From: a virus
Reading direction: 5' to 3' (one strand)
IMG/VR virus record: IMGVR_UViG_3300005436_000012
DNA length: 64,000 bases
Part shown: positions 2,363 to 63,659 of the stretch, piece after piece
Position numbering within the stretch: position 1 is the stretch's first letter
Layout: each line of letters starts with the position of its first letter
Notes under the pieces: generated by a model
Seen by the model: the letters and a program-made list of their open reading frames with translations, nothing else
Databases searched by the model: none
Told to the model about the DNA's origin: nothing
Translations under genes and position numbers: made by a program

Positions 2363-2381
2363 TGGACCCGGCCCACGTCAC

Positions 2382-3549: not shown

Positions 3550-3558
3550 CGCCGCTGG

Positions 3559-15858: not shown

Positions 15859-16626
15859 TCACGCCGCCTTTCTGGCAGCGAGTGACGCCTTGAGCGCGGC
15901 CATGATATCGACCGCCGCGGCTTGCGGCTTCTGGGCTTCGGGTTTGGGCGGCGCTGCGCCGGATTCCTTGGATGCGATCAAGGCCAGAATCTTTTCGCGA
16001 TAGCCATCCGAGAATTTCGAGGCATCGAACGTCCCCGAATAGGCCGCAATCAGACTGGAAGCCAATTCCGATTCCGCCTCGCCGATCTGGCCCAGGTCGG
16101 TGCGGTACTCTTCCGTCGCGCGGGCTTCGTGCGCGTAGAAAAGCGTGTGCGCCACGATGCCCGATTTCCCGGCGCGGATCGCCAGGACGTGTTCGCGGCT
16201 GGACATGGTGATTTTGGCGATCGCCACCGCGCCCGAACGCTTCAGCCCGTCATAAAGCAGGGCGTAAGCCTTCGAGCCGCCCTCGTCGGGCGCGATCCAG
16301 TATGCGCTTTCATAGTTGACCGGATCGACCTGAGCGATCGGAACGAATTCCGTAATCTCGGCCACGTGCGCAGACGACGGTGCCAGGGCCTTGATTTCTT
16401 CCGGCGTCACGATCACCCAGCCTTTGCCGGTCTTGTAGCCCTTCACCACGTCGGCGGGAGCGATATCGGAGCCGTCCGATTTGACGTAGGACTTCCGTCC
16501 CACCGGTTCGAGATCCGATTTCCGGAGTTCATTGAAGCTGACCGATTCACTGCGGGCGGCACATGCTAATTTCACGGGCACGCTCACGAGTCCAAATGCG
16601 ATGTGGCCTTTCCAAACGCTTGCCAT
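15859..16626 (-). CDS. ku: Ku (non-homologous end-joining DNA-end-binding protein)
   Basis: MASVWKGHIAFGLVSVPVKL is the canonical Ku N-terminus; Ku-core-like length (256 aa). Confidence 0.8.
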   Translation of the reverse strand: MASVWKGHIAFGLVSVPVKLACAARSESVSFNELRKSDLEPVGRKSYVKSDGSDIAPADVVKGYKTGKGWVIVTPEEIKALAPSSAHVAEITEFVPIAQVDPVNYESAYWIAPDEGGSKAYALLYDGLKRSGAVAIAKITMSSREHVLAIRAGKSGIVAHTLFYAHEARATEEYRTDLGQIGEAESELASSLIAAYSGTFDASKFSDGYREKILALIASKESGAAPPKPEAQKPQAAAVDIMAALKASLAARKAA

Positions 16627-16705
16627 TTTATTTGCTCTTTTCTCCCTCTGCATTGATTCGGGCTGGGGACCGGCTGGTTTGAAAAACCCAGGCTGCATTA
16701 CGAGC

Positions 16706-16735
16706 GAGTATATCTGACTGCGCAGTCAGTGACAA
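16706..16735 (-). promoter_or_regulatory. promoter/operator copy A upstream of ku: -35 TTGTCA, 17-nt spacer, -10 TATACT
   Basis: Reverse complement TTGTCA-CTGACTGCGCAGTCAGA-TATACT; perfect 16-bp palindrome CTGACTGCGCAGTCAG at 16714-16729. Confidence 0.5.
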
Positions 16736-16897
16736 CACCGCATAGAATACGCGCTGTGCAATGATCGAAAAGCTGGTCTGTAGGTGGTCTTACACTCAAC
16801 CGCCGCGTACCAGCCTCGATTTACCGGGTCGGTTTCGAGACTGACACGCGACGTCTAGGGCAGGTCGGAGGATTGCACAGAACGCGCGGCTATGCGT

Positions 16898-17323
16898 CTA
16901 GGCGGGTGGTTTGGTGTTCGTCTCGCTGAGCACTTGCGCAATGCGCACGTAATCTTCGGTTGACACACCGAGGCGCGGCTCGGTTTTGACGGCGTTGAAA
17001 GTTCGCTCAAACGCCAGCCATCGGCAATCGGCCAGCGCCACGATGAGCGGATCTTCCAGCGCCGTCACGCGCGCGTTCCAGGCATCGATCAGACCGCTGC
17101 CGCACGCGCCCGCGATGTAGGCGGGCTCGACGACATTGTTAACGTAGTCGCGCAGGATCGCGCGTCGCGGTTTGCCGGTGATGATACGCTGCATCATTCC
17201 GGCCAGTCCTCCGAGCTGCGCAGCGAGCGCGATCGAGCGGGCTTTGTCTCGGGCGGGCAGTTGTTCCCATTCCCAATCGAGCGAAATGAGCAGACAAGCA
17301 GCCGGACGTTCTTTCAGTTTCAT
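16898..17323 (-). CDS. hypothetical protein
   Basis: Internal Met (MKLKERP) with an AGGAGA RBS; ATGA overlap with the ligase stop. Confidence 0.4.
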   Translation of the reverse strand: MKLKERPAACLLISLDWEWEQLPARDKARSIALAAQLGGLAGMMQRIITGKPRRAILRDYVNNVVEPAYIAGACGSGLIDAWNARVTALEDPLIVALADCRWLAFERTFNAVKTEPRLGVSTEDYVRIAQVLSETNTKPPA

Positions 17324-18369
17324 TTGGCTTCTCCTTTGAATTTCAGTTGATCGATGGTGCACTCTGACGGTTCGATGTCTTCCCGCACGGCGAGAAAAAC
17401 GGACTGGCTGAGCGACCCGGATCGATGCGCGTAAAGATAACGCACTTCGACCACGGCCCCCACGGGCGGCGCGGTCTTGTTGGGCGGGATCGTGCAACGT
17501 CCCAGCTCGGTGCCGTCAAAAAGCTTCATGTTGAAACTGGATTGCACGTTGTGAGCCGCCACGATGACCGAAGCCGTCGCGACGAATTTGTATTTGAGAG
17601 CCGGTCCGCCTGAATTGGGCCGTCCCGGTGTGTAGGGCGCAATGGCGTATTTCAGCACCACGCCTTCCCTGCCCTCGGATTTGCAGCGGGCGAACAGCGC
17701 GAGTTTGGAATCCGGATCGGTCGCCGTTTCCACCACGCGGATGCCGGATTGCGAGGATCCGAAAAGCGAATGCAGCAGCCCCAGGCGATCGCTGTAACGG
17801 GACGCGCGCATGTCGGCGAGTCCGGCCAGCAGATCGAACGCCCAGATGATGTCGCCGATAATTTCGCCGTCAATGATGAAGGCCTCATACGGGCATTCGA
17901 GAGCGGCTTTGACGATAGTGCCGGGCAGCGTGTTGTTTACCCTGCCCGTCCGCGAATAGCTGGTTAGTCGGCCATCGCGCTTTTCTAAGATGATCCGGTT
18001 GCCGTCGAATTTCTCCTGGAAATAAATATCGGGATCGGGCGCGAGTGAAAGCAATTCCGCGTCCGTGATTTCGTTCAACAGCATGGGCTTCGGAACCAGC
18101 CTCGGACCGCATGGCTCGGGCTTGGCATCGAAGCCGACCGTTTCGAGCGGCGTCGCGTCTTCGCCGGGCGTATAGCCCTTGGCGAGTTTCTCGTTCAGCT
18201 TCGACTGATAAAGCGCGTTCGCGGCCGTCTCCGATGCGGCAGCCACGGTTTTGGTTTGCATCGTTCCTCCGCGCGGCCCCCAGGCGAATTGCACGGTGCC
18301 GTTATCGACGGAGGCGGTATAGACTTTGTCCGACCTCGAATCTTTGTAGTACAGGGTTTGGGTTTTCAT
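17320..18369 (-). CDS. ATP-dependent DNA ligase with N-terminal WGR-like module
   Basis: Motif I KFDGNR, III FIIDGEII, IV WAFDLL, V EGVVLK; N-terminal FAWGPRGG (WGR-like). Confidence 0.8.
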   Translation of the reverse strand: MKTQTLYYKDSRSDKVYTASVDNGTVQFAWGPRGGTMQTKTVAAASETAANALYQSKLNEKLAKGYTPGEDATPLETVGFDAKPEPCGPRLVPKPMLLNEITDAELLSLAPDPDIYFQEKFDGNRIILEKRDGRLTSYSRTGRVNNTLPGTIVKAALECPYEAFIIDGEIIGDIIWAFDLLAGLADMRASRYSDRLGLLHSLFGSSQSGIRVVETATDPDSKLALFARCKSEGREGVVLKYAIAPYTPGRPNSGGPALKYKFVATASVIVAAHNVQSSFNMKLFDGTELGRCTIPPNKTAPPVGAVVEVRYLYAHRSGSLSQSVFLAVREDIEPSECTIDQLKFKGEAK

Positions 18370-20090: not shown

Positions 20091-20341
20091 TTGCGCTCCT
20101 CGATCTTGGCTTCGTGCGGACGTTCGTAGCCCGGCAGCCCGAGCGCGTCGAGATGTTTGCAATGGCGGTGAATGCGCCACGCGGGGCACGAGCATCCCCA
20201 GTGCCGTTTGTCTTTGTTCTGCGAGATGACGTAAAGCCGATCGGAAGATTCCGACGCGATATGAAATCGATTGGTCCATTGCGCGTTGTCGGCTAACTTG
20301 ACTTCGCGGCGGACGTACAATACGGGCGTGTTGTTCGGCAT
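20087..20341 (-). CDS. hypothetical Cys/His protein
   Basis: MPNNTPVLYV...HWGCSCPAWRIHRHCKH; GGAG close to the ATG; sits directly under promoter B. Confidence 0.4.
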   Translation of the reverse strand: MPNNTPVLYVRREVKLADNAQWTNRFHIASESSDRLYVISQNKDKRHWGCSCPAWRIHRHCKHLDALGLPGYERPHEAKIEERK

Positions 20342-20355
20342 GCTGATCTCCTTGA

Positions 20356-20384
20356 GAGTATATCTGACTACGTTGTGACTGCCA
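20356..20384 (-). promoter_or_regulatory. promoter/operator copy B: -35 TTGGCA, 17-nt spacer, -10 TATACT
   Basis: Reverse complement TTGGCA-GTCACAACGTAGTCAGA-TATACT; half-sites CTGAC/GTGAC; coordinates may be off by 1. Confidence 0.4.
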
Positions 20385-20439
20385 ACACGGCGCAGAAAAC
20401 GCGCTGTGCAATGATTTGAAAGGCGGGCTTTGCAGCCCG

Positions 20440-24728: not shown

Positions 24729-25322
24729 GTGTCTCCATTCCCTTTCCGTTCCGCCGCTGCCGGCGAATCCTCGCGCGCATACGCCGCCTTCACGCTGTAT
24801 CGCGACCTGGGCCCGGCGCGTTCGCAGCAATCCGCCTGGCGGGAACATCTCAAACGAGCGGGACGGGGCGAGGAAACGATTTCCTGCCCGCGCACCTGGC
24901 AGGATTGGTCCTCGAAATTCGAATGGGTAGGCCGGGCGGCCGCCTACGATCAGGAAATCGACGCGCAGAGGCTGAAAGCGCGCATCGAGAAAACCCGGGA
25001 GCTCGAGGAACGCCGCGCGCAATTTGAATTCGAAAACCAGGACAGGTTAGAGAAGCGGGTCCGCAAGGCGGAAGCGGTTCTCGACAAAGCCGATTCGGCG
25101 CCCATCACCGACGTCACCCAATCGAAGGAAGAAATAGTCAAGGGCAAAGCCACCAGCACCAAGACCAAGGTCAAGGGCATCAATTTCTCGGGCTACGCGG
25201 CGCTGATGAATAAAACCAACGAGACGGCCCGGCAGGCGATCACGGGCGTCCGCGCTGACAAAAACTCGGAATCGAAACCCGGCGCCGTCCAGGAAGTCGA
25301 CGGTCTGATCTGGACGGAATGA
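24729..25322 (+). CDS. putative terminase small subunit
   Basis: Position directly upstream of the large terminase with overlapping stop/start; coiled-coil middle region; no diagnostic motif. Confidence 0.35.
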   Translation: MSPFPFRSAAAGESSRAYAAFTLYRDLGPARSQQSAWREHLKRAGRGEETISCPRTWQDWSSKFEWVGRAAAYDQEIDAQRLKARIEKTRELEERRAQFEFENQDRLEKRVRKAEAVLDKADSAPITDVTQSKEEIVKGKATSTKTKVKGINFSGYAALMNKTNETARQAITGVRADKNSESKPGAVQEVDGLIWTE

Positions 25323-26761
25323 ATCGCCGAGAGTTTCTGGCGGCCACTGTCATGGCCGGGCAACTTCCCAAGCGTAAAATCCGGTACGCCATCGACCCTG
25401 ATACGGGCGACGAGCGCAAGCCCTTCGAATGGCAGACGGCCTTTCACCGTTCGCCGGCGCGCTTCAAGGGATTCTCCGGACCGGTCGGATCCGGCAAATC
25501 GCGCGCCTTGTGTTCGGAAGCTCTAAAACTGGCCTATTTGAATCGCGGCCGGACTGGCGTCATCGGCGCGCCGACGTATCCGATGCTGCGCGATTCGACG
25601 CGCGCGTCGTTTCTGGAAATCCTGGAAGAGAACCGGATTCCCTACCGGCTGCATAAGTCGGAAAACTCGATCTATCTGCCGGAAGCCAGATCAACGATCC
25701 TGTTCCGCGCTCTCGATTCCTTCGAACGGATCCGCGGCACGAATCTGAGTTGGTTTGGGGTAGACGAATTAACTTACTGCAAGCCCCAGTCCTGGCTCCG
25801 GCTCGAAGCCCGGCTGCGAGATCCCAAGGCCACGCATCTGTGCGGGTTCGGATCCTGGACGCCCAAAGGCTTCGATTGGGTTTATGACCGCTTCATCGGC
25901 CCCGATCGCAAGCCCGGCTATGAGGCTTTCCGCGCGCGGCAGAATCCGACGCTGGGAGATTATTACCAGCGCCTGCAGGAAAGCTACGATCCCAGGTTTT
26001 TCCAGCAGGAAGCCGAAGGCGAATATCTCAACGTCTTTTCGGGCCAGGTCTATTATCCGTTCAACCGCAAAGATCACTTGAGACAAATCGAATACTCGCC
26101 GGCGCATCCGATCTGGTGGGCGCTCGATTTCAACGTCAACCCCATGTGCTCGGTGATCGGGCAGACCTACGGCGGAATCATCCGGGTGTTGGACGAGCTG
26201 GTGCTCTCGAATTCGAATACGCTGGCCGCCTGCGAGGAATTCCTGGCGCGCACCGCACACATGCTCGCGGCCCGCAAAGTCCCGGAAGTTCCCGAAGACT
26301 GGCTCGAGCAGCAGGGTGTAGGCTATCCGCTCGATCCGCCGGCGCCCTTGAACGTGTACGTCTACGGCGATCCGGCCGGCACGCAGCGCAAAACCTCGAG
26401 TTCGAGAACCGACTGGCAGATCGTGCGCGAGTTTTTCGGCCGCTACACCGATAAGTTCAAGGTGCAACTGCGCGTTCCCGAAGCCCATCCGCTGGTCAAG
26501 GACCGCGTGAACTGCGTCAACGCCATGCTGCTGAACTATGCCGGCGAGAAGCGCATGTATCTGGATTCCAAATGCCGCGAGCTCGCCAAGGATTTCGAGC
26601 AGCTGGCATGGAAGGCGGATCCGAACGGAAACCCGCTGTCGGAACTCAATAAATCCGATCCGATGCGATCGCATCTCTCGGACGCCTTGGGTTACATGAT
26701 CGTCCGCGAATTCCCGATGAAACGCAAAGCCGGCGAGCGATCGGGCCCGCCGCTCGTCTGA
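25319..26761 (+). CDS. terminase large subunit
   Basis: Walker A GPVGSGKS, Walker B-like FGVDELTY, C-terminal nuclease motif VYGDPAGTQ; 480 aa. Confidence 0.85.
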   Translation: MNRREFLAATVMAGQLPKRKIRYAIDPDTGDERKPFEWQTAFHRSPARFKGFSGPVGSGKSRALCSEALKLAYLNRGRTGVIGAPTYPMLRDSTRASFLEILEENRIPYRLHKSENSIYLPEARSTILFRALDSFERIRGTNLSWFGVDELTYCKPQSWLRLEARLRDPKATHLCGFGSWTPKGFDWVYDRFIGPDRKPGYEAFRARQNPTLGDYYQRLQESYDPRFFQQEAEGEYLNVFSGQVYYPFNRKDHLRQIEYSPAHPIWWALDFNVNPMCSVIGQTYGGIIRVLDELVLSNSNTLAACEEFLARTAHMLAARKVPEVPEDWLEQQGVGYPLDPPAPLNVYVYGDPAGTQRKTSSSRTDWQIVREFFGRYTDKFKVQLRVPEAHPLVKDRVNCVNAMLLNYAGEKRMYLDSKCRELAKDFEQLAWKADPNGNPLSELNKSDPMRSHLSDALGYMIVREFPMKRKAGERSGPPLV

Positions 26762-30931: not shown

Positions 30932-32173
30932 ATGCATCTCCGTGTCGTCATCGGCATTTGCGCCTGCGCGTTGGCCGTGTCTGCGCAGAATCCCAATACC
31001 GCGCGCTGGCCAGCCTTTAACGCGGGCGATCCCGATCTGTTCGTGGTCACCAACCGGGCGCAGACCAGTCTGACCGCGCCCATCGACAACGTCACTACCA
31101 CGTTTCCGGTGGCGAACATCTCTCTTTTTACTCCGCCCGTGATCGTGACCATCGAAACGGAAGTGATGCATTGTGCGGTCGCTGGCGGCGTGCTCCTGCA
31201 AGGCTGCGTGCGCGCCCAGGAAGGAACGGTGGCCGCGGCCCATCCCTCCGGCGCGTTAGTGTTCGGCTACTTCTCGGCCTGGCACTACAACCAGGTGGCG
31301 GCGGAGATCAAGGCCATCGAAGCCAACGCGACCAAACTGCCAGCCTTCAACAATCTGGGTACGCTATCGGGCACGCCCACGTTCCCGGTGACCGCACAAA
31401 TTCAGACGTTCAAAATCACGCTCAACGGCGCCGTCACTTCCTCGACGCTGGGTACCCCGATCTCGAACGGTCTGGTTTATTTCGACGTCTGTCAGAACGG
31501 CACGGGCGGATTCACGTTCGCCTGGCCGGCGGGATTTTCACTGGCGCAGATCGTCTCGCCGTCTCCCAATACCTGCAGCGTGCAGGGTTTTCAGTGGGAC
31601 GGCGCCGCGGCGATTCCTCTTTCCCCGGGAACCGCTACTGGCTCGACTTTCCCCGACGTGAAATACATGCCGGCGGCCGATTGCGTCAACGGGATGGCCG
31701 GTTCGGGTTGGTCGACGGGTCTCACCCCCGCCGCTCTTTGCCGAGCGGGCACGAACAATAAAGAGGCCTTGTTGAGCCCCTGGGGCGCGAGCGACACCGC
31801 GCAGCTTTCGATGCATTTGTCCAAAGATTGGAATTCCACGATCAACCCCTCGGTGAGCCTGGATGTGACCTCCACCGATGCGACGAACGGCCACACCATC
31901 ATCATGCAGCTGGCGACGGCTTGCGATAAGGGCGATGGATCGACCACCGACGACGTCGCGTTCAATTCGCCGCAATCGTTTTCGACCATCACGCTGAACG
32001 GAAACGCCAACCGCACCTGGACTGCGACCTTAAACAACATCACCATGACGGGTTGCGCCGCGCCGGGGGTCTTGCGCCTTCAGCTCAGCCGTACAGCCGA
32101 TACGGCCACGAATGTCGGAGTGATCGGACTCGCGATTACAGTCCCCAGAACGCTCATGCTACAGGCCAATTAA
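30932..32173 (+). CDS. secreted protein, AQNPNTARWP N-module family member 1
   Basis: Signal peptide; about 130-aa N-module shared with the 44259 ORF and the 43232 fragment; motif CAVAGGVLLQGCVRAQEGTVAAAHPSGALV. Confidence 0.5.
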   Translation: MHLRVVIGICACALAVSAQNPNTARWPAFNAGDPDLFVVTNRAQTSLTAPIDNVTTTFPVANISLFTPPVIVTIETEVMHCAVAGGVLLQGCVRAQEGTVAAAHPSGALVFGYFSAWHYNQVAAEIKAIEANATKLPAFNNLGTLSGTPTFPVTAQIQTFKITLNGAVTSSTLGTPISNGLVYFDVCQNGTGGFTFAWPAGFSLAQIVSPSPNTCSVQGFQWDGAAAIPLSPGTATGSTFPDVKYMPAADCVNGMAGSGWSTGLTPAALCRAGTNNKEALLSPWGASDTAQLSMHLSKDWNSTINPSVSLDVTSTDATNGHTIIMQLATACDKGDGSTTDDVAFNSPQSFSTITLNGNANRTWTATLNNITMTGCAAPGVLRLQLSRTADTATNVGVIGLAITVPRTLMLQAN

Positions 32174-38465: not shown

Positions 38466-41400
38466 ATGCTCCACTACGGAAATGATGCAGGGTTCAACGT
38501 ACCCGACGGTCCAGGAGCTAGCGTTGACCCTTTCGAACAAGAGTTTCAGCGCTACCCATCCAGCAACACCGGGCGATTTAAGCGATGGATGGGCTCGCCG
38601 GCGGGATTCCGGCCGCCGCCATTTTCGCTAGAAGGCAATGCCCTAAGTGAGCCTGATCAATGGTTGCCGAACGAGGCGCCGCAGACTAATTTTGCTTTCC
38701 CAAAACTCGCAGCCGCGGCTGTTCTGCTTGCGACGCTCACGGCCTGCGCGTTCACGGCGCCGTTACCTGGACCGGCGCCCGAATCGGAAGTCAACGCCTG
38801 GTCCCAACAACCAGCCAGTAACTTAAAAAAGTTTGTTCTCCGGACGCTTAGCAGCGGTTCGGAGATCGTCACCGTCGACAAGTGGCATCCGGAACTCGCC
38901 CGGCCACGCTATGACGTCGCGCGCGGCCAATATCTCTATCCGGCGTTTCTCTACACCCAACCGGTTCCGGCACTAGAGCGGACGACGCCCGACAAGTGGG
39001 CGCCCGAGATTCAGCGCCCGCGTTTTGACGTCTCTCGCGCGCAGTATCTCTCTCAGACCGGCGCGATCCCCGATCAGCAGCAGAAGCCGGATCTGGATTC
39101 CTGGGTTCCCGAAGTCCGCCAGCCGCAGTTCGATGTCGGGCGAAGGCAGTATCTCTATCCGGCGGGCGTCCTGCCCGACCAACAGCAGAAGCCGGATCTG
39201 GATTCCTGGGTCCCCGAAGTACGGCAGCCGCAGTTCGATACCGCTCGGCGTCAGTACGTTTATCCGCCCGCTCCCATCGGTCCGGTTGTGGCCGTTTTCC
39301 TAGAGCGGACGACGGTCGATAAGTACGATCCCGGCACGGAACGGCCACGCTTTGATCTGGCGCGGCTCCAGTATCTCGCTCCGAACTTCTTCCCGGATCC
39401 GTTCCCGAGAACCCCATCGATCGAAACGATCACGATCGATAAATGGCATCTGGAAATTCAGAGGCCGCGCTTTGATCTGGGGCGGAGCCAGTATCTTTAC
39501 CCGGCCGCTGTCCTACCCGATCAGCAGCAGAAGCCGGATCTCGATTCCTGGGTCCCCGAACTCCGGCAGCCGCAGTTCGATACCGCGCGCAAACAGTATC
39601 TTTATCCATCGCACGCGGCACCGGTTTCGAGCGTATTCAGCGAGCGGACGACGCCCGACAAGTGGGCGCCCGAGATTCAGCGCCCGCAGTTCGACGTCGG
39701 GCGAAGGCAGTATCTCTATCCCGCCGGGATAGTTCCCGATCAGCAGCAGAAGCCGGATCTCGATTCCTGGGTCCCCGAAGTTCGCCAGCCGCAGTTCGAT
39801 GTCGGGCGAAGGCAGTATCTCTATCCGGCGCACATCGGGCCGATCTCGCCAGTCGTAAAAGAACGATCGACCCCGGATAAATACGACCCGGGAATCGCTC
39901 AACCGCGCTTCGACCTGGCTCGCCGGCAGGATCTGTATCCGCCACACACCGGGCCAGTTGCCCCGCCGTTAGCGGTAGTAGTCATCCCGGTCGAGCCGGA
40001 AATAAACCGCTGGTCGCAGCTGCCCTATCGCAGCCTCAAACAATGGGTTATCCGGACCTTCCAGAATCCAGCGATCTATTCACGCTGGCAGCCGGAGGGA
40101 AATCAGCCGCGCTTCGATGTCTCCCGGCGGCAGTATCTCTATCCGGTACAGGCTGGCCCGATCGCGACCGTCTTCGTAGAAACGAACAAGGTCGATAAGT
40201 GGCATCCGGAGATTCAAAGGCCGCGCTTCGATCTGGTGCGCCGGCAGGATCTCTATCAGGTTCATGGCGCGCCGATTGCGACGCGTTTCACCGAGCGTAG
40301 CGAGCAGTCCGATAAATGGGCGAGCGCGATCGAGCAGCCGCAATTTGATCTTTCCCGGCGCCAGTTCATCGTTCCGGCAGTTTCCTTCGCTTGGCCGGTT
40401 CCGACCGTCATTGAAATCAGTACGGTCGACAAATGGGTCCCGGCCGTTGAACAGCCGCAATTCGATCAAAAGCGCCAGCAAGTTCTTTCCGAGCCGCTTA
40501 CTTTATCCAGCTATCCGACGCTGGCATCGCTGCCGCTCCAGACCCCGGATAAATGGTGGCAGCCAACTCCGGATCCCGTCCGGCCAATCGATTCGCGCGC
40601 CCATCTGGACGCTGCGTCGCTGTTCATCTTCCCGCAGCCTGCCATGCAGGCCGCCGGCGGCGCGAACGCCATCACGCTGGCCTGGAAATTCGTCCACGTC
40701 GGCACGAAATCGTTTGAGCCGGTTTTAGTTCCCAATAACTGGCGCGAACGCAGCACTCCGGATAAATGGCATCCGGAAATTCAGCGGCCCAGATTCGACC
40801 AGGTCCGCCGGCAGGATCTCTATCCGGCGCTCACGAATCCCGTGGCGCCGTTGTTCGTGTCGGTTCCCTACGCCGACAAGTTCCATCCGGAAATTCAGCG
40901 GCCGCGCTTCGAGCCCAAGCGCCATCAGTATCTTTATCCGGGTTATAGCGGTCCGGTCTCAAAGGTTTTTCCAGAGACTGCGAGTGCCGACCGCTGGCAT
41001 CCGGGGATCGAGCGTCCGCGGTTTGATTTAGGACGCAGGCAGCAGCTTTACCCCGCGCATGCCGGGCCAGCAACAATACTGTTCCAAGAGACAGTATCGG
41101 CCGACCGTTGGTATCTGGAAATCCAGCGCCCGCGCTTCGACGTCAGCCGGGTACAATATCTCGGCGAGGCCTCGCCGTTCCTGTTCCAGCCGTTCCCTTC
41201 GTCGGCCAAAGGGCCCTCCGGCAAAGCGGGCGTCCAGGTCCTGGTCTGGAAACGCGGCAGCGCGGGCTCGAAATCGTTTGAGCCGGTTTTAGTCCCGAAC
41301 AATTGGATCGAGCGCAGTAGCGCTGACAAATGGCACCCGGCCATCGAGCAGCCACAGTTCGATGCCAAGCGCCTGCAGGCCCTGTATGAACCGGCTTCGT

Positions 41401-42836
41401 TCAACCCGAAGCCCTTCATATCGCCGATTTTTGCGGATCGCTGGTTCCGTCTGGCCGAGGAGCCGCGCTTTGACGTCTCCCGGCGGCAGTACATCACCGG
41501 GCCGGTTCTCGAGCTCGCCCAGGCCCAGCGCCAGGAGAATCCGTGGCCCGACCGTTGGGCTCCGCGCACCGAAGCGCCGCTCTACGATTCCAAGCGCATC
41601 CAGGGGCTCTACGAGCCTTCGGCTTTCTTCCCGCGGCCGTTCCCGAATGCGGTCACGCTCGATCAATGGTTCCCGGGCGTCGATCAGCCGCGTTTCGATC
41701 TGCGCAGGCTGCAAGCGGTTTATGAGCTGTTCTCGACGGACGCCTTCCCGCGCCCGGCGATCATTCTGGTCGACCGCTGGTTCCGTTTAACGGAAGAGCC
41801 GCGCTTCGATCTTTCCCGGCGGCAGTACATTACCGGGCCGGTCCTTGAATTGGCCCCGGCGCAGCGCGCCGAGACCGCCAAGGTCGATGAGTGGTATCCG
41901 GGCATCCAACAGCCCCTGTTCGACCTGAAACGTCTGCAGGCGGGCTACGAGCCTACTTCGTTCAATCCGCGGCCCCTCGCTTCGCCGATCTTCCTCGAGC
42001 GATGGTATCCGGGCGTTGTCCAGGCCCTGTTCGATTCGCCGCGCCGGCAGTGGATCTATCCCTGCTTCTTCCCGGATCCGCTGCCGCGAATTTTCGTATT
42101 CGCCGATCGCTGGCACCCCGCGATCGAACAGAAAGCTGCGGATCTCAAACGGCTTCAGCATCTTTATCCGCCGTTTGTCCTGGATGGCATTCCGCGCATC
42201 GAGCCGGTTTCGCTCGATAAATTCCATCCGCTGATCGAGCTGCCGCGCTTCGACATCAAGCGCGTCCAGTTCCTCTCTCCGGCGTTCATCTTACAGCTCT
42301 CCCAGCCGGCGCATGTCGAGATCACGACCGCCGACCGCTGGCATCCGGAGATTCAACGTCCGCGCTTCGATCTGAAGCGGCTCCAGTATCTCTATCCGGA
42401 GCTCGCCCGCCAGCCCTTGCCGGTCCGGCACCGCCACCGGCCGCCGCGCCTGGTGGCAGCCAATAACCGGATGTTCATCGTTCCGGCGCAAAACCGGATT
42501 TTTGAAGTGTCCGCCCGGTCCCGAATTTTCCTGGTTCAACTCATGCCGCAACCGCCCGCGCCTCCGCGTGAAAACAAAACGCCCAAGGAGCAGCTCGATT
42601 GCGGATTTGACTGGACGCTTTGGCTCAATGGCGACACGATCGTCACTTCTACCTGGGCCTTCGATCCGGGGCTGGCGAACGTCGCGACGGCTATCAACAA
42701 TAACGTGACCACCATCTGGCTCTCGGGCGGAGCGGCCGGCGTTTCTTACGCGGTCACCAATACGATCACGACCGCCTCGACGCCGGCGCGAACCGGGATC
42801 CGGACGTTGTACGTCGATTGCGCGGCAACTCTTTAA
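38466..42836 (+). CDS. giant repeat protein (1456 aa) of about 29 tandem Trp/Pro-rich 35-45-aa units
   Basis: Unit consensus DKW(H/A/V)PEIQRPRFD(V/L)xRRQYLYP; internal lipobox-like LLATLTAC near residue 90; globular Thr/Asn-rich C-terminal about 100 aa. Confidence 0.6.
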   Translation: MLHYGNDAGFNVPDGPGASVDPFEQEFQRYPSSNTGRFKRWMGSPAGFRPPPFSLEGNALSEPDQWLPNEAPQTNFAFPKLAAAAVLLATLTACAFTAPLPGPAPESEVNAWSQQPASNLKKFVLRTLSSGSEIVTVDKWHPELARPRYDVARGQYLYPAFLYTQPVPALERTTPDKWAPEIQRPRFDVSRAQYLSQTGAIPDQQQKPDLDSWVPEVRQPQFDVGRRQYLYPAGVLPDQQQKPDLDSWVPEVRQPQFDTARRQYVYPPAPIGPVVAVFLERTTVDKYDPGTERPRFDLARLQYLAPNFFPDPFPRTPSIETITIDKWHLEIQRPRFDLGRSQYLYPAAVLPDQQQKPDLDSWVPELRQPQFDTARKQYLYPSHAAPVSSVFSERTTPDKWAPEIQRPQFDVGRRQYLYPAGIVPDQQQKPDLDSWVPEVRQPQFDVGRRQYLYPAHIGPISPVVKERSTPDKYDPGIAQPRFDLARRQDLYPPHTGPVAPPLAVVVIPVEPEINRWSQLPYRSLKQWVIRTFQNPAIYSRWQPEGNQPRFDVSRRQYLYPVQAGPIATVFVETNKVDKWHPEIQRPRFDLVRRQDLYQVHGAPIATRFTERSEQSDKWASAIEQPQFDLSRRQFIVPAVSFAWPVPTVIEISTVDKWVPAVEQPQFDQKRQQVLSEPLTLSSYPTLASLPLQTPDKWWQPTPDPVRPIDSRAHLDAASLFIFPQPAMQAAGGANAITLAWKFVHVGTKSFEPVLVPNNWRERSTPDKWHPEIQRPRFDQVRRQDLYPALTNPVAPLFVSVPYADKFHPEIQRPRFEPKRHQYLYPGYSGPVSKVFPETASADRWHPGIERPRFDLGRRQQLYPAHAGPATILFQETVSADRWYLEIQRPRFDVSRVQYLGEASPFLFQPFPSSAKGPSGKAGVQVLVWKRGSAGSKSFEPVLVPNNWIERSSADKWHPAIEQPQFDAKRLQALYEPASFNPKPFISPIFADRWFRLAEEPRFDVSRRQYITGPVLELAQAQRQENPWPDRWAPRTEAPLYDSKRIQGLYEPSAFFPRPFPNAVTLDQWFPGVDQPRFDLRRLQAVYELFSTDAFPRPAIILVDRWFRLTEEPRFDLSRRQYITGPVLELAPAQRAETAKVDEWYPGIQQPLFDLKRLQAGYEPTSFNPRPLASPIFLERWYPGVVQALFDSPRRQWIYPCFFPDPLPRIFVFADRWHPAIEQKAADLKRLQHLYPPFVLDGIPRIEPVSLDKFHPLIELPRFDIKRVQFLSPAFILQLSQPAHVEITTADRWHPEIQRPRFDLKRLQYLYPELARQPLPVRHRHRPPRLVAANNRMFIVPAQNRIFEVSARSRIFLVQLMPQPPAPPRENKTPKEQLDCGFDWTLWLNGDTIVTSTWAFDPGLANVATAINNNVTTIWLSGGAAGVSYAVTNTITTASTPARTGIRTLYVDCAATL
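38877..42420 (+). repeat. in-frame tandem coding repeat array (about 29 units, many near-identical at DNA level)
   Basis: Recurring cagcagcagaagccggatctggattcctgggtccccgaagtccgccagccgcagttcgat-type units. Confidence 0.7.
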
Positions 42837-43231
42837 TCGATCTCGATGCGTTAAAACTTTTCGCGATTCTTTTTCATGCCAAACCCACCCATCCAAGGAT
42901 CCGAATTCGGGCAGGGGGAATTCGGGGACTCGCTGTTCAACGCCCCCGCGCCCGCTACTACGCCCGCGCTGATCTATGTCGCCGAGTGCCCGGTGGTCGT
43001 CATCCGCTTCCAGGATTCGGTCCTGCTCTAGGCGTGTCCCGGTAATCAGCGAGAAGGATGCAACCGACCATGGGATCGAAGGTGCACATATCTATTTTCC
43101 CTGGCGGCCGCAAACGAAGCCTGCCTCGTTCTTGTTTTGCAATTCTCACAGCGTCCTCGACATTTCCAAACGGGACCAAGACCGTACCGTCGGCTAGATC
43201 AATGAAGAACATAGCCCGAATTTAACAACAA

Positions 43232-43430
43232 ATGAAGAAGTTCCTGCTCTTCGTATTATTCGCGACCCTGGCGATAGCCCAAAACCCGAACACCGCCCGC
43301 TGGCCCGGCAGCGTCGCCACCGACACCGATCTGCTCGTGGCGGGCCAATCTCTATCCGGAGCTCGCCCGCCAGCCCTTGCCGGTCCGGCTTGGCTGCCAC
43401 CAGGCGCGGCGGCCGGTGGCGGTTTAGCGC
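43232..43430 (+). pseudogene. truncated N-terminal fragment of the AQNPNTARWP family fused to a fold-back copy of the giant repeat gene 3' end
   Basis: MKKFLLFVLFATLAIAQNPNTARWPGSVATDTDLLVAGQ, then 43345-43393 identical to about 42395-42441, then reverse complement of about 42443-42477. Confidence 0.45.
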
Positions 43431-44134
43431 CACGCGGACGATCGGATGAGCAGAACAACGGCCAAGGCGACCGGAAAGAAGTAAGCCGGTTCTGGAGTAG
43501 GCAAAGGATCGGCGGGTGGCTCAATCAGCAAGGTAGATTTAGCATATCCTACGCCGTTTCCGCCACCAGTCACTTCGACATCGGCTTGATAGGAGAATGG
43601 GACGCCCAATTGAATCGGCTCTGTGAGCACGATCTGGCGGGTCGTGAACGGTGGCGCTTCCCAGTTGTAACCGTACTTCGAATCCGACCAGATCTCGACT
43701 CCATTCCACCAGAAGTCGGCTGTGGCGTTCTCCCAAGCGGTCAGATCGTTTCCTGCCCCGACGGTCCAGTCCAGCGTGAAGGTCACTTGAGCGGGACCAG
43801 TGCCGTCAAACAATCCCGTATCGGTTGCCGTGGATTTGAAATCGAAACTGGATCGCATGAGAATTCCGTTGTAGCGTCCGCCTTGGCCGACGCTCGCCGA
43901 AAGCGAACCAGCGCCACCGGAGACGCTAGGGCCGACGTAGAGCGGGTCGCTAGCGGGGCAATCCAGATCGATGCCGGTTCCCGTGGCTGTATAGCTTTTG
44001 GTCATGCCCTCAGTGGGCGCCGTCTGACCAATATATTGGCATTGGATCGAAGCCGATCCGCTGTCGGTGAAGGTGGGTGTGGCGACAAGTATTGGCGCGA
44101 GGGCCAGCCATGTGAAAAACTTGAGATTGGGCAT
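43424..44134 (-). CDS. PEP-CTERM sorting-signal protein (exosortase substrate), antisense to the late operon
   Basis: Signal peptide MPNLKFFTWLALAPILVA; C-terminus PLPTPEPAYFFPVALAVVLLIRSSAWR = PEP motif + TM + basic tail; AAGGAAG RBS. Confidence 0.6.
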   Translation of the reverse strand: MPNLKFFTWLALAPILVATPTFTDSGSASIQCQYIGQTAPTEGMTKSYTATGTGIDLDCPASDPLYVGPSVSGGAGSLSASVGQGGRYNGILMRSSFDFKSTATDTGLFDGTGPAQVTFTLDWTVGAGNDLTAWENATADFWWNGVEIWSDSKYGYNWEAPPFTTRQIVLTEPIQLGVPFSYQADVEVTGGGNGVGYAKSTLLIEPPADPLPTPEPAYFFPVALAVVLLIRSSAWR

Positions 44135-44258: not shown

Positions 44259-45620
44259 ATGAAGCGTTTTCTCGCTACGCTCGCGGTGTTCGCATGGAGT
44301 GGGGTTTTGTGCGCCCAAAACCCGAATAGTGCTCGCTGGCCCGGTGCGATCGCGAGCGACACCGACCTGCTCGTAGCGGCCAATAATTCGCAGACTGTTT
44401 TAGCGGCGTCGATCGACAACGCGGTGACTACGTTCCTGGTCGCATCGGGCACCGCCTTTACCGCGCCAGTTGCCATCACCATCGATAACGAGATCATACT
44501 GTGCACCACCTTGACGGCCAATACCTTTTCCGGCTGTACGCGCGGCTGGCGGGGGACCACGGCCGCGCCGCACAACAACGTGGCCACCGTATACGGCTTC
44601 AACGTGGACTGGTATCACAATCAGCTCGCGGCTGAAATCAAGGCGCTCGAAGCCTTTATGACGGCCTTTACGGATTTCGGTTCGGCCGCGGGCACGCCTG
44701 TTTTCCAAGTCACGAGCCGTCTGCAGACTTTCAAAATCACTCTTTCGGGCAACGTCGCGAGTTCGACCCTGCAAAATCCCGTGCAGGGAGGCATGCTCAC
44801 GTTCATCGTCTGCCAGGGGCCGGGCGGGCCTTTCACGTTCGCGTTTCCGGCCGGGTTTGGGACCGCGGCGGCGATCTCACCAGAAACGAACGTCTGCACG
44901 ACCGAAGAATTCACGTGGGACGGATCGCAAGCTGTGGAGCGCTCCGCAGGTTCGAACGGTTTGCTCTCGATCGTTCCTTTGGTGCCCGCGCCGGCAGGCT
45001 GCCCGGTCGGAACTTTGCTGTGGAGCTGGCCGGACAATGTCTGGTCGGTGCCGTACTGGAAAGATTCGGCCTGCAATTTGACCCATCCGGTCCGCACGGT
45101 GGACTGCTCGGCGGGCGGAACGTCGTCGAACGTCGTGCAAAAGATCAACGCCGACGGCTCGGAGACCTGCGCGGCGGGCGGCGGAGGCGGAGGCGGATCG
45201 CCAGCCAACCCGTTTTCTCTCTCCGGATCGGGAACAGTCGCGACCTTAAACCACAACCTGAACACGACCAATGTCTTCAGCGCCTGCTATGACACTAACG
45301 GTTTGGAACTCGACGTCCAGAAACAAGTCTCCAGCGCCAACCAGGTGATCGTTCAGTTTCTTGCCCCGGTCAATAACTGGCATTGCATCGTGGCCACTGG
45401 AGCGAGCGGAAAATATCCGGTGGCGCTCACGGCCTCGAATTCCTACACGGTCACGGGAGCCACGCATTTGCTCGGCACTTCCAATTTGACGGTGACCTGC
45501 CGCGACGCCGCCGTGCCGGCCAACTGGTTCGAGCCCGGCCAGGTGACCGTCGCCGCCAATAACGACATCGTCATCACCATGCTGGCCGCCAAATCAGGAG
45601 GCGCTTGTTTCATCCAATGA
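44259..45620 (+). CDS. secreted protein, AQNPNSARWP N-module family member 2
   Basis: Signal peptide; N-module and CTTLTANTFSGCTRGWRGTTAAPHNNVATV motif shared with the 30932 ORF; Gly-rich AAGGGGGGGS stretch. Confidence 0.5.
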   Translation: MKRFLATLAVFAWSGVLCAQNPNSARWPGAIASDTDLLVAANNSQTVLAASIDNAVTTFLVASGTAFTAPVAITIDNEIILCTTLTANTFSGCTRGWRGTTAAPHNNVATVYGFNVDWYHNQLAAEIKALEAFMTAFTDFGSAAGTPVFQVTSRLQTFKITLSGNVASSTLQNPVQGGMLTFIVCQGPGGPFTFAFPAGFGTAAAISPETNVCTTEEFTWDGSQAVERSAGSNGLLSIVPLVPAPAGCPVGTLLWSWPDNVWSVPYWKDSACNLTHPVRTVDCSAGGTSSNVVQKINADGSETCAAGGGGGGGSPANPFSLSGSGTVATLNHNLNTTNVFSACYDTNGLELDVQKQVSSANQVIVQFLAPVNNWHCIVATGASGKYPVALTASNSYTVTGATHLLGTSNLTVTCRDAAVPANWFEPGQVTVAANNDIVITMLAAKSGGACFIQ

Positions 45621-49916: not shown

Positions 49917-51131
49917 ATGGCGGCATCAGCTATGGCAACCCCTTCAATTCATCGCCCCACACGGCTTCCGCCAGCGAGTGGGGGCGCGCCCATGATGCGT
50001 CTCTCGATTTCCTTAGATCCCACCAAAACCGGACGTGAAGCCGAAGCGCTGGAGACAACCTTAAACCGGATGATCGTGGGGCAGGCCGAAGCCGTTCAGG
50101 CCATTCTCTCGATCTATCAAACCCATGTGGCCGGACTCGCCCCGCCCTTGCGTCCCATCGGGAACTTCCTGTTTCTCGGGCCCACCGGATCCGGCAAGAC
50201 CCGCATCGTGGAGGCGACCGCCGAGGCGCTGCTGTTCAACCCGCGGGCGCTGATCAAAATCGATTGCGCCGAATTCCAGCACAGCCACGAGATCGCGAAA
50301 CTGATCGGCTCACCGCCCGGATACCTGGGACACCGGGAAACTCATGCGCTGCTGAGCCAGGAAGTCTTGAACCAGCACCACACGGCAACGGTAAAGATCA
50401 GTATCGTGCTGTTCGACGAAATTGAAAAAGCCTCGGACGCGCTGTGGAATTTATTGCTCGGGATTCTCGATAAAGGCACGCTGACGCTCGGAGACAACCG
50501 CCGGGTCGATTTCTCGCAGGCCTTGATCTTCATGACCTCCAACCTCGGCGCGAGCGAGATGAACGCTCTCCTGCATCCGAGCTTCGGGTTCCACGGCGCG
50601 CCGGCGGAGGTGGAAGCCAAGAAGATCTCCAAGATCGGCCTGGCGGCGTCCCGGCGGAAATTCACGCCCGAGTTCGTCAACCGCCTGGACCGGATCGTGA
50701 CCTTCAAGCCGCTCGGCGCCGAGCAGCTCGACAAAATCCTGGACATCGAATTGAACCTGGTCCAGCAGCGCATTTTTAACGGAGGCGGGCGCGCCTTCGT
50801 CTTTAAAATGAGCCTGGAGGCCAGAGTCCTGCTGCTCGAGCAAGGCACGGATCTCAAATACGGCGCCCGGCATTTGAAACGCGCCATCGAACGCCTGCTG
50901 GTCCAGCCGCTCTCGAACCTGCTGGCCTCCAATCAATTGCGCGGAGGCGACAGCGTGCAGGTCGACCGCCAGGCCGGGGTTTTGAGCTTTATCAAAGACG
51001 GCGAAGGCCTCGCGGCCGGCGCCATGGCCGACCTGGTCGATCGCTCGATTTCAGCGCCGTCCCCGGTCTTCACGGGCGCGATCGAAAGCCGGACCACCGA
51101 ACTACGCGCCCGCTCCTCGAGGCGCGGATAG
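49917..51131 (+). CDS. stand-alone Clp/Hsp100 D2-type (AAA_2) ATPase
   Basis: VGQAEAVQAI...GNFLFLGPTGSGKTRIVEA...IKIDCAEFQHSHEIAKLIGSPPGYLGH is the ClpA/B D2 signature; Walker B VLFDEIEKA; sensor GARHLKRAIE. Confidence 0.7.
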   Translation: MAASAMATPSIHRPTRLPPASGGAPMMRLSISLDPTKTGREAEALETTLNRMIVGQAEAVQAILSIYQTHVAGLAPPLRPIGNFLFLGPTGSGKTRIVEATAEALLFNPRALIKIDCAEFQHSHEIAKLIGSPPGYLGHRETHALLSQEVLNQHHTATVKISIVLFDEIEKASDALWNLLLGILDKGTLTLGDNRRVDFSQALIFMTSNLGASEMNALLHPSFGFHGAPAEVEAKKISKIGLAASRRKFTPEFVNRLDRIVTFKPLGAEQLDKILDIELNLVQQRIFNGGGRAFVFKMSLEARVLLLEQGTDLKYGARHLKRAIERLLVQPLSNLLASNQLRGGDSVQVDRQAGVLSFIKDGEGLAAGAMADLVDRSISAPSPVFTGAIESRTTELRARSSRRG

Positions 51132-58023: not shown

Positions 58024-58923
58024 ATGGCAAATGAATTAACGTCCGCCAATGCCGCGCAGGCGATTCCCAAAATCGTTGCGCCGATCGCCCTGGCGGCGCT
58101 GTTCCCCAACTTCGTGATGGCGGCGTTCGTCAACCGGAATTATGACGGAGCGCTGGCCCAGGCCGGCGACACGGTCAACGTGCCGATCGCGCCCAATCTG
58201 ACCGCCAACAACATCGCTGAGGCGGGCACGGTTACCAACCAGAATCCCAATCTCGGCAACGCCCAGATCGTGCTGAACGCTCACATCGAAGCGACGTTCC
58301 AGATCCCCAACGTCACCCAGGCGCTGGCGGCCCCCGATCTCATTTCGACCTATCTGCAGCCGGCCGTCGTGGCGATCGCCGAGAAGATCGAGAACGATCT
58401 GCTGTCGGTCTATCCGCTGCTGACCTTCAACTCCTCGGTCGGCACCGCGAATACGACCCTGACGGAAGCCACGCTGGACTCGGCCGAGACGGCCCTGTTC
58501 AAAGCCAAGATGCCGGATTCGGTTCCCAAGTACCTAGTGGTCACCGGCGACGCATATTCCGCCATCCGCCAGATTTCCCGCTTCACCGAACAGCGCATGG
58601 TCGGCAACGGCACCGCGATTTATACCGGAGTCGTCGGCCAGCTCAAAAACATGACCATCGTGCGATCGCAGAAGGTCGTCACGGTCTCCACCACCACCAA
58701 CAACATGGCTTTCGGATCGGACGCCATCTGCCTGGTTACGCGCGCGCTGCCCAACATCATTCCCGGCACCGGCGCCATCGCGTCCAACACCAATTTCGGC
58801 GGCTTCGGGTTGCGCATCGTCATGAGCTACAACCCCAACACGCTGGGACAGCAATTCACGGTCGACGTGCTCTACGGCGTCGGCATCCTCCGCAATCAGT
58901 TCGGCGTACTGGTGCTCAGCTAA
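58024..58923 (+). CDS. major capsid (coat) protein-like, paralog 2
   Basis: 299 aa; follows scaffold-like gene and structured leader; shares motifs with the 942-1805 ORF. Confidence 0.55.
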   Translation: MANELTSANAAQAIPKIVAPIALAALFPNFVMAAFVNRNYDGALAQAGDTVNVPIAPNLTANNIAEAGTVTNQNPNLGNAQIVLNAHIEATFQIPNVTQALAAPDLISTYLQPAVVAIAEKIENDLLSVYPLLTFNSSVGTANTTLTEATLDSAETALFKAKMPDSVPKYLVVTGDAYSAIRQISRFTEQRMVGNGTAIYTGVVGQLKNMTIVRSQKVVTVSTTTNNMAFGSDAICLVTRALPNIIPGTGAIASNTNFGGFGLRIVMSYNPNTLGQQFTVDVLYGVGILRNQFGVLVLS

Positions 58924-60783: not shown

Positions 60784-61539
60784 ATGAAAAGAATATTCGC
60801 ATTTCCGCTGTTTGGCATGGCGCTGCTCGTAAGTGCGGCCCTCATCAGCTTCTTTCCGCCGGCGATTCTCCTCAACGCCCAGCTGCCAGCCGATCAGGCC
60901 ATCACGCGGCCCGATCACATGACGGTGAACGATCTGGGGACCTGCAACGAAGGCGAGACCGAATACAACCTGACCCAACATGTCGGCAAACGCTGCGGAA
61001 CAGGGGGGAACGTCTGGTGGCCGATTCCTGCCGCTGCAGTCACGTCCTCGAATTCCGGCCAGGTCTATCAGGTCAATGCTTCCGGATTGCCCACCGTTAC
61101 CACGGTCGGCTCGGGCGGCCTGACGGCCAACACTCCGGATGGCCTATCGGCGCAGCTGGTCTGCCATGTCACCTACAGTTTCGCGGTGGATGGGGGAACG
61201 ACACCGGTTGTTCCGGCCGGCAATTGTGTGATTCCGATCAATGCGGTGATCACCAATGTCGGAGTACAGGCGACTACCAGCGTGACGGCCTCGGGCTCGG
61301 CGACGGTGGCGCTCGGATGCGTGGCCGGCACGGCCTGCGGAGCGTCCTCGTTAATGGCTGCCACCGCCAAGGCCTCTCTGACTGCTGGGACCTTCGGTCA
61401 AAGTATCCCCGTACCGCAGACGGCTTCGACGTGGGTCAAGACCACCGCGGCCACCGGCATCACGCTCACGATCGCCACCGGGCCCCTGACGGCCGGGGTG
61501 ATCGAAATCTACGTGATGTACTACCAGTCTTCCACTTAG
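60784..61539 (+). CDS. secreted protein, family B member 1
   Basis: Signal peptide MKRIFAFPLFGMALLVSAALISF; LNAQLPADQAITRPD ... TGPLTAGVIEIY shared with the 61567 ORF. Confidence 0.45.
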   Translation: MKRIFAFPLFGMALLVSAALISFFPPAILLNAQLPADQAITRPDHMTVNDLGTCNEGETEYNLTQHVGKRCGTGGNVWWPIPAAAVTSSNSGQVYQVNASGLPTVTTVGSGGLTANTPDGLSAQLVCHVTYSFAVDGGTTPVVPAGNCVIPINAVITNVGVQATTSVTASGSATVALGCVAGTACGASSLMAATAKASLTAGTFGQSIPVPQTASTWVKTTAATGITLTIATGPLTAGVIEIYVMYYQSST

Positions 61540-61566: not shown

Positions 61567-62322
61567 ATGAAAAACTATATCGCCCCTTCCCTTTTTCTGG
61601 CCGTAATTCTGATTGCCGGCGCCGTCCTGCTCGCGCCTGCCCCGAGCTTGCTCAACGCCCAGCAACCAGCTGATCAGGCCCCCACGCGGCCCGACCGTCT
61701 CACCGTCTATGGAGATCCCGGAAATTGCGGTGAAGGCGAGACGTCCTACAGCTTTCTGCAGCATTTCGGTAAGCGCTGCATCGCCGCTCTCACGCAGGCG
61801 CCCATTCCCGCGCTCGCAGCTACCAGTGCCAACAATCTGTCGGTCTATTCTATCGGCGCGAATGGGCTGCCGGCGTTGCTCGCAGGCGTCGGCGACTCCA
61901 ATCTGACATCCAACACCGTCACCGGGCTATCAGCGCTGCGTGTGTGCCATGTCACCTATAGTTTCGCGGTCGATGGCGGAGCTACTCCGATCGTCCCGGC
62001 CGGCAATTGCGTGATTCCGGCCAACGCCGTCATCTACAACGTCGGCATCCAGTCCACCACGGCTGTAACGGCCGTGGGCCTGGCTACCGTGGCGTTGGGC
62101 TGCACGGGAGGCACGGCTTGCGGCACTGCCGCTCTGATGACGGCCTTGGCCAAGGCGTCGCTTGGAACAGCGGCCTTCGGCCAGAGTGTTCCGGTCCCAC
62201 AAACCGCGTCCACTTGGGTCAAGACTACCGCCGCCGGCGGCCTCGCGCTCACGATCGCCACCGGGCCGTTGACGGCCGGCATAATCGAAATATATTGCGA
62301 ATACTATCTCAGCAGCTCGTAA
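61567..62322 (+). CDS. secreted protein, family B member 2
   Basis: Signal peptide; LNAQQPADQAPTRPD ... TGPLTAGIIEIY; tandem paralog. Confidence 0.45.
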   Translation: MKNYIAPSLFLAVILIAGAVLLAPAPSLLNAQQPADQAPTRPDRLTVYGDPGNCGEGETSYSFLQHFGKRCIAALTQAPIPALAATSANNLSVYSIGANGLPALLAGVGDSNLTSNTVTGLSALRVCHVTYSFAVDGGATPIVPAGNCVIPANAVIYNVGIQSTTAVTAVGLATVALGCTGGTACGTAALMTALAKASLGTAAFGQSVPVPQTASTWVKTTAAGGLALTIATGPLTAGIIEIYCEYYLSSS

Positions 62323-63338: not shown

Positions 63339-63659
63339 GTGACGCGCCGCGAATTGTTCGCCACCCTGGGCTTAGGCATTGCTCAATCACGGCCGCCTCA
63401 GGCCGGAGCCAGGGTCCCCGAAATCAGCGCAATCACGAAGCGCCAAATCACGGCCGGCACAATCACCGTCGAGAGACTCGCGCCGATACCGCACTTCTCG
63501 ATGACCGATTGTTTAACGGCGGCCAGATTGAACGAGTTGGTCGATGGAATCAACACACTGCACCGAGCTATGAGGCGTACGGCGGCCAGATTGAACGAGT
63601 TGGTCGATGGAATCAACACACTGCACCGAGCTATGAGGCGTCACGGAATAATCGAATGA
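63339..63659 (+). CDS. small protein with TAT-leader-like N-terminus and internal 21-aa tandem duplication
   Basis: MTRRELFATLGLGIAQS; TAARLNELVDGINTLHRAMRR appears twice. Confidence 0.35.
   Translation: MTRRELFATLGLGIAQSRPPQAGARVPEISAITKRQITAGTITVERLAPIPHFSMTDCLTAARLNELVDGINTLHRAMRRTAARLNELVDGINTLHRAMRRHGIIE
63516..63641 (+). repeat. perfect 63-bp tandem direct duplication (2 copies)
   Basis: acggcggccagattgaacgagttggtcgatggaatcaacacactgcaccgagctatgaggcgt occurs twice consecutively. Confidence 0.8.

Follow-up and report, generated by a model that had tools for sequence, protein, structure and literature searches.

A probable scar of complex illegitimate joining between a truncated tail-fibre paralog and an antisense PEP-CTERM-type moron in a Ku-encoding phage genome

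The window analysed here is a 64,000-nt stretch of the IMG/VR virus record IMGVR_UViG_3300005436_000012. It is a tailed-phage genome with genes for a large terminase (25319-26761) and a P22-type coat protein (58024-58923), and it also encodes ParB-like proteins and a ClpB-like ATPase. The gene for this ClpB-like AAA+ protein (49917-51131) is one 404-aa ORF in the window, is 379 aa long in the JGI contig Ga0207700_10000497, and is split into genes of 243 aa and 126 aa in the ENA MEGAHIT contig k141_5073274, with a single difference near position 50721. A short match of 72% nucleotide identity connects a left-end gene with the coat-protein gene (1066-1130 and 58154-58218), and two adjacent 251-aa genes contain a diverged paralog pair, also with 72% nucleotide identity (61141-61440 and 61924-62223). 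Several proteins of the structural region have signal-peptide-like N-termini (starts at 34455, 43232, 44259, 45605 and 46567). A-rich leaders (aacaaATG, aataaaATG), in which a Shine-Dalgarno sequence is not visible, lie ahead of the gene starts.

The locus of interest begins with a giant repeat gene on the plus strand (38466-42836, 1456 aa), which was delimited from its ORF, its tandem repeat family, a Pfam match and a family alignment. In its repeat array a DKWHPEIQRPRFD..RRQYLYP unit occurs about 18 or more times, and 3' of this array lie three mini-repeats of the xRxFxV type (VAANNRMFIV, PAQNRIFEV and SARSRIFLV). The C-terminus of the protein (aa 1371-1438) matches the Pfam family PF23148 Gp77 with an E-value of 2.4e-19 (70.1 bits against a gathering threshold of 27), a family that Pfam describes as the fibre-tail adaptor of podophage GP4. 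Mini-repeats and Gp77-like domain together form a C-terminal adaptor module (42464-42836, plus strand). A search of 1.8 billion representative proteins returned 2059 relatives of the Gp77-like domain at E<=1e-3. These are mostly stand-alone proteins of about 90-100 aa, while a minority are long proteins that have the domain at the C-terminus, and the long members carry the same kind of mini-repeats ahead of it. When the C-terminal 227 aa of the giant protein were used as query, only homologs of the repeat unit were returned.

The giant gene encodes 1456 aa in both the window and the JGI contig, compared to 1421 aa in k141_5073274, which is due to a 105-nt indel within the tandem repeats near 39722-39826; this indel is either a population polymorphism or an assembly collapse. 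A homolog of the giant gene in IMGVR_UViG_3300033004_000015 (2241-3854) shares only the first ~60 aa (MLQYGPDAGFRVPDG...), after which it has a different repeat array and lacks the adaptor domain. Judged from these alignments, the giant gene appears to have a conserved N-terminal anchor and a remainder that is swappable. Downstream of it, a spacer of 395 nt extends to the fibre fragment described below and contains a 51-aa ORF of unassigned function (42876-43031, plus strand), for which gene calls exist in the ENA, JGI and Logan contigs and which gave no family match.

The spacer is followed by the start of a tail-fibre paralog (43232-43349, plus strand; hereafter F1), consisting of an ATG and 39 codons that encode a signal-like peptide and AQNPNTARWPGSVATDTDLLVAG. 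F1 has its own A-rich leader (...aacaacaaATGAAG), which resembles the leader of the gene at 44259. That gene is an intact paralog of 453 aa (44259-45620, plus strand), and a further intact family member of 413 aa lies at 30932-32173 (plus strand), so that the window contains three copies of the AQNPN[TS]ARWPG family N-terminus, two of which are intact. The start of F1 is homologous to the starts of both intact genes, as the preliminary description had proposed, with 81% nucleotide identity over 67 nt to that of 44259-45620. Family members share a signal-like leader and the pattern AQNPNxA.[WYF]P...D.DLLVA, after which a conserved CTRG...HNQLAAE module follows; external members (P0002-P0009) likewise continue into this module. 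In F1 the first 39 aa match the family and everything past DLLVA is missing, which identifies it as a truncated third member, in line with the earlier description, and not as an intact gene. The 310-aa ORF that runs on from the F1 start is only an antisense shadow of the neighbouring PEP-CTERM-type gene. Homologs of the fibre paralogs in distant phages (P0003 and P0007) were considered for reconstruction of the ancestral locus and were of no use, owing to their distance and their different gene order.

Between the F1 fragment and the intact paralog lies a gene on the minus strand, and thus antisense to the structural operon (43424-44134, 236 aa). Its product has a signal peptide and ends in a PEP motif, a hydrophobic stretch and a basic tail (motif PEPAYFFPVALAVVLLIRSSAWR), by which we tentatively classed it as a PEP-CTERM-type secreted protein. 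Neither Pfam nor NCBIfam gave a PEP-CTERM HMM match for it, and the label rests on inspection and on homologs with 55-66% identity that carry clear PEP-CTERM tails such as IPEPNALSLVAVGLAGMAGRKKIARR. The length past the PEP motif is equal in this protein and its homologs. Since the C-terminus is thus full-length, the ORF is intact. One homolog occurs in a bacterial mobile region with two integrases and without phage structural genes, a setting which would fit a host-derived moron. The closest contextualised homolog, on the JGI contig Ga0566199_00059157 (4653-5363), adjoins two tyrosine-integrase genes in surroundings that resemble a bacterial mobile element, and it also has a long antisense shadow ORF.

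The nucleotide homology of F1 to its intact paralogs ends at ...GCCAAT (43349), where the sequence switches abruptly to a block copied from the giant gene. The first part of this block, D, occupies 43348-43389 (plus strand) and is identical to 42388-42429 in direct orientation at all 42 positions, with a reading frame that differs from that of the source. The second part, I', occupies 43390-43423 (minus strand) and is the reverse complement of 42430-42463, again without a mismatch (34/34). As D and I adjoin in the source (both on the plus strand there), the block corresponds to 76 contiguous bases of the giant gene, of which 42 nt were kept direct and the following 34 nt were flipped in place, with 76/76 nt identical. 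The direct copy and the inverted continuation into the following source bases had both been noticed before and their sequences were quoted correctly; the boundaries then given for the direct part (43345-43393 and 42395-42441) are replaced by those above, and the inverted part is 34 nt long instead of 35. The source is upstream and the copy downstream, at a start-to-start distance for D of exactly 960 nt. With up to 3 mismatches allowed, D and I matched nothing else in the window, and the chance expectation from 100 dinucleotide-preserving shuffles was 0 matches. The two I arms (42430-42463 and 43390-43423) are 926 bp apart and are the sole inverted repeat of at least 24 nt within the 64-kb window.

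In the giant gene, the source D encodes YLYPELARQPLPVR, that is, the end of the last repeat unit plus a linker, and the source I encodes (H)RHRPPRLVAA(N). The source site was originally placed at the 3' end of the giant gene; it actually lies at the seam between repeat array and adaptor module, 373-448 nt before the stop codon. The first 13-16 nt of D (CAGT-ATCTCTATCCGG) correspond to the QYLYP end of the 111-nt repeat unit and recur 5-6 times within the giant gene. On the other side, LVAA(N), encoded at the right end of I, opens the first VAAxxRxFxV mini-repeat and lines up with VAAQSRSFSV and VAAESRVFSV of other Gp77-family members. Because the start of D and the right end of I are both native to the giant gene, the comparison identifies 43348-43423 as the derived copy, with copying in the direction from giant gene to scar. 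I contains a 23-nt imperfect palindrome, CCACCGGCCGCCGCGCCTGGTGG. We observed no sign of selected secondary structure in the I arm, as its fold energies equalled those of shuffled sequences (z -1.0 to 0; z -0.2 for the source arm), and a terminator role was rejected since no terminator-like site is present at the arm. A deeper homology between the D+I block and the fibre N-terminus was also rejected (local alignment P = 0.04-0.2).

Three junctions mark the block. At the junction between F1 and D (N|D), 2 nt are shared (AT, 43348-43349), while the junction between D and I' shows 0 microhomology in register. The last base of I' is 43423 and the minus-strand gene has its stop codon at 43424-43426, so that the block abuts this gene exactly, as had been pointed out earlier. 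Two adjacent source pieces in opposite orientations, unrelated flanks and a template less than 1 kb away point to a complex illegitimate event, and the 76/76 identity, compared to 81% between the paralog N-termini, indicates that this event was recent. We therefore consider the element to be, probably, a recent non-functional scar of one complex illegitimate joining event. The best reading is that this same event truncated F1 and fixed the adjacent moron; that insertion of the moron destroyed a third fibre paralog, as originally suggested, is plausible.

As judged from its paralogs, a third tail-fibre gene would once have been situated 3' of the giant gene, presumably in intact form. Its body would then have been lost, and its first 39 codons would have become joined to the 3' end of the antisense host-like gene, with the joint filled by a 76-nt patch from one contiguous giant-gene site 960 nt upstream, all three junctions probably arising in a single event. 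Two versions of its enzymology can be envisaged. The patch may have been generated by a series of switches from one strand to the other of a template close by, of the MMBIR or short-template-switch type. Alternatively, a broken F1 may have been end-joined after both ends were extended from, or captured fragments of, one site in a sibling genome, in which case the foreign gene would have been brought in along with two small patches. The junction features, 2 nt of AT at N|D and none at D|I', would fit illegitimate joining; given this minimal microhomology, pure microhomology-primed switching is not specifically supported. The proposal of a template-switch or fold-back event thus holds for its first half, since an illegitimate, template-switch-type class describes the joint best. 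In the strict sense it is no fold-back, as I' does not complement the 42 nt of D that precede it, nor does the sequence turn back on itself.

An anchored 11-match motif is common to the end at which F1 breaks off (GTGGCGGGCCAAT) and the right end of the source I (GTGGCAGCCAAT), with P ~1e-4 for random anchored pairs, uncorrected, and perhaps 1e-2 when the junctions and offsets examined are allowed for. Both of these ends encode LVA[AG]. The shared motif may explain the choice of the donor site, via homeologous pairing of the broken fibre gene. Its GCCAAT sequence could not prime the inverted joint directly, as its polarity is wrong for this, and with the junctions and offsets taken into account the motif is no more than suggestive. 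Two other routes to the inverted part were rejected. Loop inversion via the 5-nt TCCGG/CCGGA pair that flanks the source I predicts ...TCCGG-TTA-I', while ...TCCGG-C-I' is observed, and snap-back self-priming of the moron 3' end would yield an arm derived from upstream moron sequence, whereas the arm matches the giant gene. Against the scar reading stands the fact that I' ends precisely where the stop codon of an intact gene lies, a coincidence for which this model has no explanation.

Libraries and assemblies are known to produce short inverted joins as artefacts. JGI contig Ga0207700_10000497 has identical junctions, and over 15.1 kb 1 mismatch and 1 gap set it apart from the window. The MEGAHIT contig k141_5073274 contains the identical 76-nt block and flanks; it differs from the window by the 105-nt repeat indel and by 2 mismatches in the aligned part, and because of these differences it represents a separate assembly. 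Moreover, 141-mers span the entire 76-nt block and both flanks, and since real 141-mers fix the graph path through the 42-nt and 34-nt repeats, these repeats cannot cause a misjoin. The Logan k=31 contigs (SRR5456985) break precisely where the repeats require it in a de Bruijn graph, and two of them independently hold the outer junctions: one (L005) covers 42430-43377, ends 30 nt into D and contains the N|D junction, and the other (L003) begins at 43394, with 30 nt of I' left, and contains the junction of I' with the stop codon. The contigs (SRR5456985, JGI 3300025928 and ERZ27264997) may share one or a few related samples. With the same sequence recovered in the window, the JGI contig and the separately assembled k141 contig, an assembly chimera, which the preliminary description had mentioned as a concern, or a chimeric library molecule is a very unlikely source of the junctions. 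A history in two steps would derive the junctions from a 960-nt tandem duplication from D to the fibre fragment, with N|D as an ordinary duplication joint, followed by a moron-linked rearrangement that removed most of the second copy and inverted a 34-nt stump. The spacing of D by exactly 960 nt and the shape of N|D, which resembles a tandem-duplication joint with 2-nt microhomology, speak for such a history, and the genome seems prone to duplication, as illustrated by a 63-nt tandem duplication (63516-63641) and by the 105-nt difference in repeat number between assemblies. However, two events are needed where one complex event is enough, the in-place inversion of exactly the 34 nt after D is still unexplained, and the further duplicated sequence has left no trace, which makes this history unlikely.

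The inverted arms can also be read as a functional inversion switch, in which the 34-bp arms are recombination sites and the 926-bp segment between them flips. In one state the phage would make the giant repeat protein with its adaptor domain, and in the other a giant protein with a short tail plus a stand-alone adaptor ORF coupled to the PEP-CTERM-type gene; the flipped-state joins would read GGCGCTAA+I+TAACCGG and D+I+rcD. The arms are perfect (34/34 nt), are 926 bp apart and form the only such pair in 64 kb, and one of them contains a 23-nt imperfect dyad and lies exactly at a domain boundary of a structural gene, like in tail-fibre inversion systems. In the Mu G and P1 C systems, tail-fibre inversion likewise has an arm at a domain boundary within a structural gene. 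Furthermore, flipping would give an ORF that starts from GTG 43433, in overlap with the stop codon upstream, and continues as MALNRHRPPRLVAANNRMFIV... into the adaptor domain. Members of the Gp77-like family are mostly stand-alone proteins of ~90-100 aa. An upstream GTG is, however, probably expected about 1 in 7 times by chance. The long fused architecture of N-terminal part, mini-repeats and domain is nevertheless normal for this family as well, flipping would leave the giant gene with a terminal ~60 aa of Arg-rich nonsense (ORF 43194-43433, minus strand), and a stand-alone adaptor gene, the marker of the flipped state, was looked up with none on record. No serine or tyrosine recombinase was detected: resolvase, invertase and integrase domains were absent from the ~50 ORFs scanned in the window and from the precomputed Pfam annotation of the other 8 kb of the 72-kb contig. 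The window and the JGI and ENA contigs all show one and the same orientation; the Logan k=31 contigs cannot distinguish the I/I' orientations. An inversion switch also leaves the 42-nt direct repeat and the truncated paralog unexplained. All in all, we judge such a switch very unlikely, and we regard it as highly improbable that the arms bound a functional 926-bp cassette whose inversion depends on homologous recombination, or on a recombinase that is supplied by the host or has escaped recognition. If it were real, the cassette would toggle between a 1330-aa array tethered by the Gp77-like adaptor and a stand-alone adaptor translationally coupled to the PEP-CTERM-type moron, and this would be a new phage phase variation, acting on an adaptor instead of on the receptor-binding tip.

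Returning to the joining event as the preferred reading, the window encodes proteins that could act in the end-joining version. A Ku gene (15859-16698, minus strand) matches PF02735 with an E-value of 3e-36 and TIGR02772 Ku_bact with 237 bits against a cut-off of 150. An ATP-dependent DNA ligase gene (17320-18369, minus strand) matches PF01068 with an E-value of 5e-15; the best NCBIfam match of the ligase, the NHEJ ligase domain TIGR02779 (E 6e-18), is below the cut-off. The ligase carries a WGR domain. From these domain matches, Ku and ligase look like a phage-borne end-joining pair, and their presence makes the end-joining version available. A role of this pair in making the scar is circumstantial, and we infer it from gene content. 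A 91-nt direct repeat with 74% identity (16689-16779 and 20339-20429, 3650 nt apart) adjoins the Ku gene and a DnaJ/ASCH gene and may be a shared regulatory region. Near the right end of the window, the perfect tandem duplication at 63516-63641 (2 x 63 nt, 100% identical) looks very recent and may have arisen by slippage or duplication.

In collections of viruses, metagenomes and genomes, exact searches for the 34-mer retrieved nothing. Protein-based scans that used the intact paralog and a conserved 342-aa neighbour as queries gave only one IMG/VR relative, IMGVR_UViG_3300033004_000015 (76% amino acid identity), in which synteny with the window is not kept downstream. The collections searched contained no near-isogenic relative, no relative with an intact F1 and no relative without the moron, and the ancestral state is consequently deduced from the paralogs only.

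Inverted templated insertions near their template and in-place inversions have been attributed to MMBIR-like switching or to cut-and-paste NHEJ (PMC8421209), and short-range template switching has been described (PMC7954356). The scar resembles such MMBIR/FoSTeS templated insertions in that a short patch is 100% identical to a template within 1 kb, is partly inverted, and lies at a rearrangement junction that has little or no microhomology. Those events come mainly from yeast, human and ape genomes, and their templates are usually within ~100 bp. In contrast, the patch described here is bipartite (42 nt direct and 34 nt inverted), is 960 nt away from the template, connects a truncated phage gene with a foreign one, and has 2 nt of junction microhomology only. 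With the classical fold-back (PMC3907307), the scar has in common that a direct stretch gives way to an inverted one of the same locus. A classical fold-back arm is, however, the reverse complement of the sequence just copied, with a short spacer, and continues backwards along the chromosome, whereas the inverted 34 nt of the scar complement the bases after the source D, and the sequence then leaves the locus for the moron.

The G segment of Mu with its invertase Gin, the C segment of P1 with Cin and the Min system of p15B are invertible phage tail-fibre segments. Similar to these, the locus has short perfect inverted repeats around a segment of ~1 kb, one of which is at the boundary between the constant and variable parts of a virion gene. 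It differs from them by the absence of an invertase gene and of an alternative C-terminal cassette on the opposite strand, by the single orientation seen, and by the additional direct repeat and truncated gene. Ku genes have been discussed for the mycobacteriophages Corndog and Omega (PMC4351075, PMC3706429). The phage analysed here has a bacterial-type Ku gene like they do; unlike in these phages, a ligase gene (17320-18369) is located ~600 nt from Ku. Mycobacteriophage Ku has been linked to genome circularisation and not to rearrangement.

Tailed phages acquire morons and show mosaic junctions at gene boundaries. The junction at this locus conforms to that pattern, as an opposite-strand, host-like accessory gene lies between structural genes and is joined at the gene end. 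It departs from usual moron junctions in that a legible record of the joining was kept, in the form of a truncated resident gene and a templated patch, which is usually erased. The kind of event is known, and what we describe is not a new system; it is a legible phage specimen at a moron/tail-fibre junction in a Ku-encoding phage. The scar has no demonstrated function and is most likely not a working genetic device. The F1 remnant is a dead gene start, which may drive antisense transcription into the moron, and the 42-nt direct and 34-nt inverted repeats around the adaptor domain, the part that inversion between I and I' could detach, are substrates for later deletion or inversion. Phage mosaicism is ascribed to illegitimate recombination, the joints of which are normally unreadable, and this scar is fresh enough to read. 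If confirmed, it would provide a concrete case of moron capture combined with loss of a tail-fibre paralog, and a hint that phage-encoded end-joining contributes to mosaicism.
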